Of a stretch of 64,000 bases of DNA, positions 30,001 to 33,000 are shown one piece after another. Position 1 is the stretch's first letter, and each line of letters opens with the position of its first letter. The stretch covers positions 13,013 through 77,012 of the forward strand of contig REDG01000024.1 of the NCBI GenBank assembly GCA_007693605.1. The letters run 5' to 3'. This DNA is from Bradymonadales bacterium (GTDB taxonomy: Bacteria; Bdellovibrionota; UBA2394). Made by a program: the position numbers.

Positions 30001-33000
30001 AGGAACCTTGAAGGGCGCTCTGCAACCGCGAACGGCTGCCTACGGAAAAGCTTTTGAACACTTTTTCATTCTCGAAGCTTTCCGAATGAATCGCTACTGG
30101 GAAGCGGACTATCGGTTTTCTCATTACGCTGAAGTTCGAGGGGGCGAGATCGACCTGGTGTTGTCGCGCGGAAAAGAAGTGTTCGCTGTAGAAGTTAAGT
30201 CTGGAGATCAGGTAGATCCTATCGAAGTTAAAAAATTTTCAAGACTCGCAGATGTGCTTAAGCCTTCACGAAAGATTCTTGTCTCTCAAGATCCCATTGC
30301 TTCCAGCATTGAGGGAGTTGATTGCCTGAGTTGGCAAAGAGCTCTCAAAGAGATTTTTGCCCAGTGATCTTACTTCAATCCCATGGCTGCGACTAAAGAG
30401 AAGGATAGCGTCAACCAACGCGCAAATGACGCGCCACATTCCGATTCTCAAACAGTCTGCCGGCCAGCCCTTCTGCTCTTTTCCTGGGCGCTCCTCGACT
30501 AGCGGTAGCCGAGACTTGTGAAGATCCAGATTCTGAAGATACAATGGGCTCAGAGAGGAGCCCCTATGTTTCGTATTTTCTTAAGCCTTATTCTTTTTAC
30601 AAGCTGTTTAGTGAATGTCTCAACCGGCTACGCTCAAATCAATGAGTTTAGACAGAGACTCCTCACTCCTGGGGAAGTCGTCACTTCCAATGTCGAGCCG
30701 ATTCGTTACGCCAAGGCTAATATTAAATTTGTACATCAGTGGATGGAATTGGATGAAGAGCAGCCTTGGTTTTCGGATGAGATTTGTCTGATTCAAGCGA
30801 AGATTCCGGTTTACGATGTCAGAGGCCTCAATATGTTTCATTCTCCAGTAGATGTCATCGAAACCTGCTCCTTTGACATTCACTCCGCCGACGGAATTCA
30901 CAACCACAAGTTAAAGATCGAGATGGGCGGTTTCATTGCCATTGCAGACTTCGATGAAGGTGAGCGAAAAGTTTATTTGCCTTGGTATATCGTCCAGCAA
31001 GACGCGGGCCCGAAGTGGGTCAACAGTGGCTACCTCGACGTTTCAGATCTTCATGTGAGAGAGGTGACCCTGCTTTTAGAAGACCACAAACGCTTTTACA
31101 AGGGTGGTCGCATTACCGCGAACCTTCGGATTATTGACACCAATTGACGAGAGGAAACCTTGGCCTCAAGTTTCGAAAAACAGTCGACTTTTATGCGGAG
31201 TAAAGTCTTCTCTTTCACCCAAGAACCCCGGCATAAGGGAAGTTTTTAGAGTGGCCTAGGCTTCAAGACACAATCCCTTGATAGCTTTGCCGCCAGGAGC
31301 CAATACATACTCCAGTAATCGCGCTTGCATCATCTGGGCAGGCTCTTCGGATTTTAAATTCTGGCTTCAAAGCGTTAATCGATCCGCTCTCTCTTGGAAC
31401 AAGCTCTCAAACTTCTTCTGCATCTCCTTAGATAGAAAACTTTGAGGGATCAAGTTCAACATGGGCTCAACATTTGAGCCCATCCTGGCGAAGGACTTCT
31501 CGATTACTTTTTCGGGCAGATCAAGATTCTCTCCTAGAGCAATAAAATCTTTTCTTGTGAGATTTGATTTCTTGCCGTTGAGAGGAAGCGCAGATTCCTC
31601 GTTATCTCTAGGCATTACTAGAGCTGTAGAGACCAGGTCATAGGCTGGGGCCAATGAAACAAAATCTTGTTCATCCGTCAAAAGTGAAAAGTTTTTTAAA
31701 TGCATGTCAGCGTTACCGATAAGAAAACACAGAAGGGCTAAGTCAAAAAAGGTCACGGCATCGACTCCAGGATTCGATGAATACTTTCTTATGATCTTTC
31801 CCACCTTCTCCATCGAACCCTGATACTTATCTTCGGTTAGAAATCCCATGAGCTGACAAAGATCTTCTACGGGAAGTTTCTTCTTTTTCTTCGGCCGATC
31901 AAAGCGCTTCGAAATGTAAGCAAGCTCTCCTGTCTTAAGTGGAACTAGGCCGTGCCGAGCTGTTTTGATTTTACAAATTTCGGAAAAATGCATGCAGAGA
32001 TCTTCGATCTCTGGAAGTTCAGGAAATTTTTCATGGGGCGGCTTAAGAATATAGTGACTATTCCATCCCACAATCGTTAGCCGCGTCGAGCCAGGCCCCT
32101 CTCGTTCCATGCCAAGAGAAAGCTTTCGCTGAACCCCTGTCACAACTAGTCTCTGGTTCACAACTTCCTTGGCAAAGTTCTGAATATCATCCATCCCGAC
32201 TTCCACCGTCGGAGGTGTTGAATGACCAGGAAATAACTTACGCGCGCATGTTGGATGATAATCTATATCACCGGAGCCGAGCGCCTCGTAACAAAAGTAA
32301 CATCGATTCTTTGGCACAGTTCTCGTTTTAACCGATTTCCTTTTCATTCCTTGATCTCTTCGATATGAACAGCACCAATACAATCCCCGCAAACAGCAAG
32401 TAGTAAGCCCATGCGATCTCGTGGATTTAATTTCCAGTTATCAATCGCGACATCCAAGAGCCAGCCCTCTGGAATCAGGCCGTCAAAGAATGGAAAGAGA
32501 GTCTTGCTCCGATAGCTCTCATTTCGAAGAGGCATCGTTAAGCTGATCGGCTTTGAAGCTTCGTCCTTAAGATAAGGTTCATCGTATGAAAAAATATAGC
32601 CTTCATCGTTTTGCTCAATGATTCCAGCCAACAGATTATCAAAATAAACTTTGCCCTTTCGGTTCATGCTTCTTCTCTCCTCGTCGGGACAACTCCTACT
32701 TCGTGAGCAAAAACAGCAAGAACCTGATTCACTTTATCCAAACGAAGCGTCTCCTTTCCTTGTTCCAAATCTCGAATAAATCGGAGACCCACACCCGAAC
32801 GATCCGCTAAATCTCGTTGGGTGAGCTGAAGTTGCCTTCTTCTTTTCTTTATGAAGACCGAAATATTCACAGGTCTAAGTATATACCCGATTGGGTATAA
32901 TAAAAGCCATTTATGATTATTTTATACCTCTTCGGGTATATTTTTCTTATATTAAATGCGCATATACCCGATCAGGTATAGATATGGTCGGAATCAATAA

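Follow-up and report, generated by a model that had tools for sequence, protein, structure and literature searches.

The window analyzed here, a 64,000-nucleotide stretch of contig REDG01000024.1 from a Bradymonadales metagenome-assembled genome (MAG; assembly GCA_007693605.1), carries on its minus strand three adjoining, co-oriented genes in the order hipB-hipS-hipT, which is the gene order of HipBST toxin-antitoxin loci, and upstream of them an array of palindromes (Table 1). A first-pass annotation had described the genes as a tripartite hipBST operon with products of 68, 107 and 326 amino acids (aa) and two ATGA junctions, and rereading of the open reading frames (ORFs) and junctions proved this description correct. 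A Shine-Dalgarno or similar sequence precedes hipS and hipT; at the hipB start, reading of the sequence revealed no recognisable one. In the NCBI annotation HipT is named "HipA family toxin," and HipS (TVQ80695.1) "phosphatidylinositol kinase."

Table 1. Features of the hipBST locus and its surroundings (window coordinates; nt, nucleotides; HTH, helix-turn-helix).
Feature	Position	Strand	Description
hipB	32664..32870	-	68-aa ORF, GTG start; predicted Xre/Y4mF-type HTH repressor
hipS	32344..32667	-	107-aa ORF; HipA N-subdomain 1 homolog, putative antitoxin
hipT	31367..32347	-	326-aa ORF; HipA-type Ser/Thr kinase core, putative toxin
hipB stop/hipS start ATGA overlap	32664..32667	-	4 nt, read from sequence
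hipS stop/hipT start ATGA overlap	32344..32347	-	4 nt, read from sequence
GAGGAG Shine-Dalgarno of hipS	32682-32677	-	9 nt to ATG
GAAGAG Shine-Dalgarno-like of hipT	32361-32356	-	8 nt to ATG
O1 (proximal), TATACCCAATCGGGTATA in gene orientation	32882..32899	.	perfect 7-nt arms, ends 11 nt before GTG
O2, TATACCCGAAGAGGTATA	32923..32940	.	perfect TATACC-N6-GGTATA
O3 (distal), TATACCTGATCGGGTATA	32963..32980	.	perfect TATACC-N6-GGTATA
TATACT -10-like hexamer	32883-32878	-	right edge of O1
TATAAA/TAAAAT -10-like hexamers	32926-32919	-	run on from right half of O2
HipT N-terminal mini-domain motif C16-x2-C19...H31-x2-C34 (residues 16-34)	32246-32302	-	motif reading
HipT Gly-rich loop VVTGVQRK	32123-32146	-	motif reading
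HipT catalytic DMHLKN (in NADMHLKN; D214, H216)	31691-31708	-	motif reading
HipT Mg-binding Asp237 (AYD)	31637-31639	-	motif reading
AAA_14+DUF4143 ATPase	29213-30367	+	PADLOC PDC-S01 match
AAA_14+DUF4143 ATPase, 479 aa	33216-34655	+	PADLOC PDC-S01 match
tRNA-Phe(GAA)	34875-34947	-	ARAGORN/Rfam
808-aa eukaryotic-type Ser/Thr kinase-domain protein	35322-37748	+	Pkinase 1.9e-40

The three proteins and their related loci

HipT matches the Pfam family HipA_C (1e-42, residues 69-293), and among solved structures it is related to Legionella pneumophila HipT (7vkb/8ezr/7wcf, 4e-52) and to Escherichia coli O127 HipT (7ab3, 9e-14); HipA of E. coli K-12 is still more remote from the window proteins than the O127 HipT and HipS. 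As in other HipT proteins, N-subdomain 1 is missing and the kinase motifs are intact. The residues D214, H216, and D237 are kept in 52, 52, and 51 of 52 family members, respectively, and D214 and D237 align with D197 and D219 of the Legionella protein, both of which were mutated by Lin et al. (2023).

In the Gly-rich loop, Val68 is the counterpart of the autophosphorylated Ser54 of Legionella (Ser57 of E. coli), and Thr70 stands at the position of E. coli Ser59. Because of this combination, the protein can be assigned by its sequence to the "PsiPsiT" class, a configuration listed among the variants of HipT's Gly-rich loop (Baerentsen 2023). Thr70, the sole Ser/Thr in the two known autophosphorylation positions, is the likely autophosphorylation residue. 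Most loops of the family read T[LV]T or A[VI]T.

HipT opens with a conserved mini-domain of ~45 aa that is absent from HipA. In 51 of 52 family members this mini-domain carries the motif C-x2-C-x(9-11)-[YF]H-x2-C. Legionella HipT keeps the first Cys only, and E. coli O127 HipT has Cys4 only. The mini-domain matched no Pfam family, and a sequence search of the PDB gave chance matches only. In the papers on HipBST it is said to be "of unknown significance," and zinc is nowhere mentioned; judging by its Cys/His pattern, the mini-domain may be a zinc knuckle.

HipS matches Couple_hipA in Pfam (3.7e-27) and TIGR03071 in NCBIfam (6.7e-32), and it aligns with residues 22-103 of K-12 HipA, which makes it a homolog of HipA N-subdomain 1. 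The best structural matches were L. pneumophila HipS (7vkb_B, 4e-18), Haemophilus influenzae HI_0666 (8e-14) and E. coli HipS (3e-11). Its residues Glu67 and Trp69 (32461-32469) align with Glu63 and Trp65 of E. coli HipS, where Trp65 wedges into the cavity left by the ejected Gly-rich loop (PMC10627512). Both residues are invariant in all 54 family members compared, whereas Legionella has Ile at the Trp position; therefore, the window system is Legionella-like overall, yet with an E. coli-type Trp plug in HipS.

HipB matches Pfam HTH_3 (9e-8) and falls into the NCBIfam family TIGR03070 (couple_hipB/Y4mF) with 79.7 bits against a curated cutoff of 71.65 (residues 2-55, 58-position model). The gene downstream of it is couple_hipA, so that both features by which the Y4mF/couple_hipB family is recognised are present. 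Its best match among solved structures is L. pneumophila HipB (8ezt, 5e-6; 47% identity over 43 aa), and a pairwise comparison with the 107-aa HipB of E. coli O127 gave no detectable match. Homologs at ~70% identity number in thousands and include proteins of human-gut Prevotella; one homolog recurs in 9196 blocks of the sequence collection. The HTH residues G26, V27, G28, R30, F31, R33, E36, Q37, G38, and K39 are invariant in 26 diverse members. The C-terminus (...VVPTRREEA) is without a C-terminal Trp of the kind that K-12 HipB uses on HipA.

These features bear on the question of which protein would neutralise the kinase. In the HipBA system of E. coli K-12, as in that of Shewanella oneidensis, HipB is the direct antitoxin, and the same could be supposed for the window, with HipS as an accessory protein only. 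We consider this very improbable: in E. coli O127 HipT is neutralised by HipS (PMC6581861) and not by HipB, and the Legionella system likewise acts via HipS; moreover, the window HipB is just 68 aa long and has no such Trp, and HipS retains the invariant Glu and Trp of the interface. From homology and comparative genomics we infer that HipS is the antitoxin.

To place the locus among its relatives, genome contigs were searched with the single HipT protein, which yielded one locus (L001), and metagenomes were scanned with a HipB alignment, which yielded 80 further loci. The 91 loci analyzed were examined by tblastn, and the operator statistics given below refer to 64 non-redundant upstream regions from several phyla. 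L001, from a "Deltaproteobacteria" MAG, repeats the three-gene arrangement, ATGA junctions included, and its HipT is 72% identical to that of the window. The order hipB-hipS-hipT was found at 69 of the 91 loci, the remainder being truncated contigs or decayed modules. Loci on Prevotella-like, Pseudomonadota, and other contigs encode HTH proteins of 70-74 aa, Couple_hipA proteins of 109-110 aa, and HipA_C proteins of 313-330 aa. A 4-nt overlap is the commonest arrangement at both the hipB-hipS (16 loci) and the hipS-hipT junction (10 loci).

With these data it is possible to evaluate a reading in which hipS and hipT are parts of a single hipA that was disrupted by a frameshift or a sequencing error, i.e., the remains of a pseudogenised hipBA pair, a possibility already raised in the first-pass annotation. 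HipS is indeed homologous to HipA N-subdomain 1, and its gene immediately precedes that of the kinase core, in a different frame. However, the same split, with lengths of 107-110 and 313-330 aa, occurs in 69 independent loci of several phyla; HipS ends where L. pneumophila HipS does, and HipT starts with the conserved ~45-aa CxxC...HxxC mini-domain that HipA does not possess. In addition, ATGA-type overlaps are the commonest junction of the family and are found in Legionella too, and an identical HipT is present on contigs of two separate blocks of the collection. We regard a broken hipA as excluded for all practical purposes, and hipS and hipT are treated below as two genes.

At some loci (L039-L043, L047, L068, L017, L033, L037, L038, L066, L090) an orphan hipB with its operator array was observed, hipS and most of hipT being lost; in one example, a fragment corresponding to HipT residues 200-253 directly follows hipB. 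Such hipB-only loci look like decayed modules that have left an orphan autorepressor. The possibility that they represent pairs of HipB with a fused hipA was rejected, as hipT fragments are present in them and no fused hipA was seen.

A phased array of palindromes upstream of hipB

The starts of O1, O2, and O3 are spaced 41 and 40 bp apart. Three TATACC-N6-GGTATA palindromes about 40 bp apart near the hipB start had been reported in the first-pass annotation, and we located them as described. The rest of the 64-kb window contains no additional copy at ≤2 mismatches, the shuffle expectation for the window being 0.00 at ≤1 mismatch and 0.16 at ≤2. In L001, TATACC-N6-GGTATA occurs four times, each site perfect and exactly 41 bp from the next, with the last one just ahead of hipB; in the window no fourth site lies 41 bp beyond O3. 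O2 and its flanks are nearly identical in the two loci; the sequence between the sites has diverged, and the counterpart of O1 is kept in the same register.

The array is a property of the whole family. With ≤3 mismatches allowed, the motif has 189 matches in 14,886 upstream positions of the 64 loci against 33 in 66,233 downstream coding positions, an enrichment of ~25-fold. Successive sites are 40 or 41 bp apart in 101 of 125 cases, and arrays are present at 60 of the 64 loci, with two (17 loci), three (33), four (9), or five sites (1). The family consensus is TTTATACCC-gAAA-GGGTATAAT, and GGGTATAAT recurs at all positions of the arrays. Due to this upstream enrichment, the 40-41-bp phasing, and the presence of arrays at nearly all loci, TATACC-N6-GGTATA can be predicted to be the operator of the entire abundant HipB clade and not a peculiarity of one locus; the period of about four helical turns appears to be under selection. 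The earlier impression that the palindromes look like operators thus finds comparative support.

The first-pass annotation had also held that half-site and spacer differ from those of E. coli K-12. We read the K-12 operators in NC_000913, and their motif, TATCC-N8-GGATA, was found neither upstream of the window hipB nor near the operon, in agreement with this statement. The further claim of a distinct operator holds for the sequence of the sites but not for their principle, as 6-N6-6 operators have been reported for Legionella HipBST (PMC10653801) and the motif is clade-wide. No open-access paper was found in which TATACC-N6-GGTATA is given as a HipB motif, and a literature search for "Y4mF" likewise returned nothing relevant.

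The palindromes might instead be bound by a regulator other than HipB, such as a factor acting on the divergent ATPase gene at 33216, or they might be repeats of a mobile element. They do lie in the 345 bp that separate hipB from the divergently oriented gene for the 479-aa ATPase, and AT-rich promoter DNA can yield TATA-rich palindromes. However, the motif and its 40-41-bp period accompany hipB in 60 of 64 loci despite differing upstream neighbors, and the motif is strongly enriched relative to coding DNA, with no other copy in the window. The invariant recognition residues of HipB fit the conserved half-site, the decayed hipB-only loci retain the sites, and the homologous HipB of Legionella binds sites of the same geometry. 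We therefore find either alternative highly unlikely and regard the palindromes as putative HipB operators.

The position of the promoter can be suggested only approximately. A scan of 31200-33250 for the sigma-70 consensus gave nothing in the region upstream of hipB (32871-33215). In a scan across the family, -10-like hexamers fell within the right half of O1, or on that of O2 or immediately past it; for the window the scan gave nothing decisive, and all its candidate hexamers overlap O2 or O1. The TATACT hexamer lies 7-8 nt before the GTG of hipB (in L001, TATATT lies 7 nt before the ATG); because of this short distance and the missing Shine-Dalgarno sequence, we put forward the hypothesis that the hipB mRNA may be leaderless.

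Two further observations concern the arrays of related loci. A Bacteroidetes-type -7 box, TAnnTTTG, was found at 25 of 60 loci (L002-L005, L052-L056, and other Prevotella-like ones), where its first base is placed exactly 6 nt ahead of the proximal operator. The final G of the box is position 2 of the operator, which accounts for the frequent TG(T/C)ACC form of the proximal half-site. In some of these loci, such as L002, L052, and L053, two adjacent sites are near-mirror images of each other, with TACCCC and TATACC half-sites.

Relationship to known systems and proposed mode of action

A subclade of HipBST of the Legionella type is widespread outside Gammaproteobacteria, especially in the FCB superphylum (PMC10653801). 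The alignment with E. coli O127:H6 HipS and HipT that had been proposed in the first-pass annotation showed both to be homologous to the window proteins, at 31 and 26% identity, respectively; Legionella is closer, with 40% for HipS and 42% for HipT. As all three proteins, including HipB (47% in its aligned part versus no match in E. coli), are nearer to the Legionella system than to that of E. coli, we assign the window locus to the Legionella-type subclade.

The Legionella HipBST (Lpg2368-2370; PDB 7vkb, 7wcf, 8ezr-8ezt; Zhen 2022; Lin 2023) has the same gene order with 4-nt overlaps and a similarly small HipB (76 aa, compared with 68 aa in the window). Upstream of it, an 18-nt site built on 6-nt inverted repeats occurs three times at even spacing, with gaps of 53 bp (PMC10653801). 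Their sequences are TTACTGCTATAACAGTAA (O1), TTACCGCCATAACAGTAA (O2), and TTACCGTGATAACAGTAA (O3), according to the oligonucleotide table of that paper. O1 overlaps the predicted promoter, at a distance of 24 nt from hipB; in electrophoretic mobility shift assays Legionella HipB bound each site, and scrambling of O1 abolished binding (PMC10653801). Lin et al. (2023) termed these sites the first HipBST operators (PMC10653801). Thus, the two systems have in common three evenly spaced 18-nt sites of 6-N6-6 geometry, of which the proximal one is near the hipB start and a -10-like sequence.

The differences from Legionella are nevertheless noticeable. The half-sites are TTACTG/CAGTAA in the Legionella O1 and TATACC/GGTATA in the window, where no Legionella operator motif was found. 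The period is 71 bp in Legionella versus 40-41 bp, and the Legionella O2 and O3 are asymmetric, whereas the three sites of the window are perfect palindromes. We considered whether the Legionella operator could be a shifted version of the window motif and rejected this, because the TACC cores are 10 bp apart in the window and 12 bp apart in Legionella. Among the proteins, Legionella HipS has Ile65 in place of Trp69, HipT has Ser54 in place of Val68, with Thr70 two residues further on in the window protein, and the CxxC...HxxC motif present in the window HipT is lost.

The HipBST of E. coli O127:H6 (PDB 7ab3-7ab5; Vang Nielsen 2019; Baerentsen 2023) is likewise tripartite, shares the Glu/Trp plug of HipS, and has a HipT without N-subdomain 1 and with an extra N-terminal mini-domain. 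Its HipB is an autorepressor rather than an antitoxin, and we ascribe the same role to the window protein on grounds of homology. In contrast to the window, the Gly-rich loop reads SIS and not VVT, and the genes overlap by 16 and 1 nt and not by 4 and 4 nt; TrpS is an established target in the E. coli clade only. Using a back-translated HipS query, we fetched an O127-type locus (L094; strain RM14723, NZ_CP027103.1 4495584-4498877). None of the three types of palindromic operator (K-12, Legionella, or window) occurs in its upstream region, and the only inverted repeat there resembles the dppF terminator. Of 5426 complete E. coli genomes, 161 carry the O127-type hipBST, which is located between dppF and yhjV.

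The HipBA system of E. coli K-12 shares with the window a HipA-family kinase and an HTH protein, HipB, with an array of 18-bp palindromes upstream of hipB that serves autoregulation. It differs in being a two-gene system in which N-subdomain 1 is part of the kinase protein and HipB acts as the antitoxin. Its operators are four copies of TATCC-N8-GGATA with 5-nt arms in steps of 28, 39, and 28 bp (NC_000913), as against three copies with 6-nt arms in the window. Neither of the marks of classical HipBA, a fused hipA and TATCC-N8-GGATA operators, was found at or near the operon. The three-component HipBA of H. influenzae (HI_0666 HipA-N; PDB 7czo) also has a split HipA with a separate N-domain protein of ~100 aa. 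HI_0666 shares a PEGW motif with the window HipS, although it belongs to the E. coli-like group and is further from the window HipS than Legionella HipS is.

Based on these comparisons, we propose the following mode of action. Free HipT, as an active Ser/Thr kinase of the HipA family, would phosphorylate an essential component and thereby arrest growth; the target is probably part of the translation apparatus, e.g., an aminoacyl-tRNA synthetase. HipS, a detached N-subdomain 1 of HipA, is expected to bind HipT and block its activity; Glu67 and Trp69 would extend into the pocket of the Gly-rich loop or next to it, as in E. coli HipS. HipB would be a small HTH dimer that represses its own operon, with one dimer per 18-bp operator. 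At a spacing of 40-41 bp, i.e., about four helical turns, the dimers would sit on the same face of the DNA, and the operators would cover every plausible -10 element upstream of hipB. The ATGA overlaps may couple translation and so fix the ratios of the three products.

The complex of HipS and HipT, when bound to HipB, probably strengthens repression. In E. coli, HipB is able to repress the hipBST promoter on its own, but repression by HipBST or HipBT is more efficient and takes place at much lower expression (PMC10627512); in Legionella, the addition of HipT gives supershifts (PMC10653801). It is because of these two results that we suggest a co-repressor role for HipS-HipT in the window system.

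Overall, we interpret the locus as a tripartite HipBST type II toxin-antitoxin operon of the Legionella-type subclade in a Bradymonadales MAG, and we estimate the probability of this reading at roughly 85%. The HipBST architecture proposed in the first-pass annotation is upheld by the Pfam and NCBIfam assignments, by the Legionella HipBST proteins being the nearest solved relatives, and by the conserved gene order at the related loci. Several points weigh against it. The evidence is comparative, not experimental, both for the locus and for the members that carry its operator motif. The hipB gene has a GTG start and lacks a Shine-Dalgarno sequence, and it is omitted, probably for these reasons, from Logan's gene calls for the contig (L091). 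The overlap of operators and promoter depends on weak -10-like hexamers. The target of Legionella HipT is reported to be neither that of E. coli HipT nor that of HipA, and none can be inferred for the window. Finally, regulation by autophosphorylation may differ from that in Legionella, the counterpart of Ser54 being Val.

Taken alone, the locus matters little, being one more HipBST module of a known kind, the Legionella type, together with a corrected annotation (the name of HipS and the missed hipB). The layout of its array is also known, the sequence and period being different. However, the systems of E. coli and Legionella are the only HipBST studied, and the HipB clade of the window has thousands of close homologs. 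For this large clade, the comparison yields an operator consensus, a fixed period, a likely Thr autophosphorylation residue, and a candidate metal-binding motif of HipT. The new points are modest: the family operator consensus, the strict 40-41-bp phasing, and the conserved CxxC...HxxC of HipT.

Tentatively, and at rather less than even odds for the proposition as a whole, these points could be combined. In that case, two to five TRYACC-N6-GGTRYA operators at 40-41 bp would be the majority, so far undescribed, design of the Legionella-type clade, read by a HipB with recognition residues that are invariant across phyla. Neighboring HipB2S2T2 hexamers would stack on one face of the DNA, make contact, and give cooperative repression sensitive to stoichiometry, and a HipT zinc knuckle (51 of 52 members) would have been lost in both model systems.

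Genomic surroundings and a possible role in defence

Within the stretch from 30 to 34 kb the GC fraction is 0.43-0.46, compared with ~0.49. Two paralogous ATPases flank hipBST, with matches to PADLOC PDC-S01 of 2e-58 and 7e-53, and the arrangement ATPase-hipBST-ATPase resembles a small defence island.

This raises the possibility that the main role of the system is not persistence or gene stabilisation but phage defence by abortive infection, in which the kinase would be freed when a phage infects the cell. The location of the operon in a lower-GC stretch next to tRNA-Phe, between PDC-S01-like ATPases, is in line with this, as are weak matches of HipS and HipT to the PADLOC candidate system PDC-M03; Gerdes (2021) proposed phage defence for other Hip kinase families. 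On the other hand, the PDC families are merely candidates, the PDC-M03 matches are weak (~1e-7), no integrase or phage genes were seen beside the operon, and the literature examined gives no HipBST shown to defend against phage. We consider defence an unlikely, though by no means far-fetched, principal role. It would be compatible with the same molecular mechanism, and the genomic context allows it but does not show it; the assignment as a HipBST toxin-antitoxin operon is the same in either case.

Beyond the downstream ATPase, an exact 24-nt copy of the 3' end of tRNA-Phe (TGCCCAGGGGCGGAATCGAACCAC) was observed at 34660-34683, 4 nt past the stop codon of the 479-aa ATPase gene. The two copies of the tRNA 3' end are 191 bp apart and look like an att-type scar, with hipBST outside it. 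An origin of hipBST within a tRNA-Phe island was considered and rejected: the sole repeat of the tRNA 3' end is 215 bp away, the operon is not enclosed, and no integrase is a neighbor. Two tandem copies, offset by ~96 bp (34929-35005 and 35025-35100), contain the 5' part of tRNA-Phe and the sequence upstream of it, and another, incomplete copy is found near 35121-35146 (region 34929-35146); ARAGORN and Rfam call one tRNA. At a permissive threshold, Rfam returned for 30-36 kb the tRNA alone and no other non-coding RNA. Just past the tRNA-Phe region lies the gene for the 808-aa Pkinase protein, which is unrelated to HipT.

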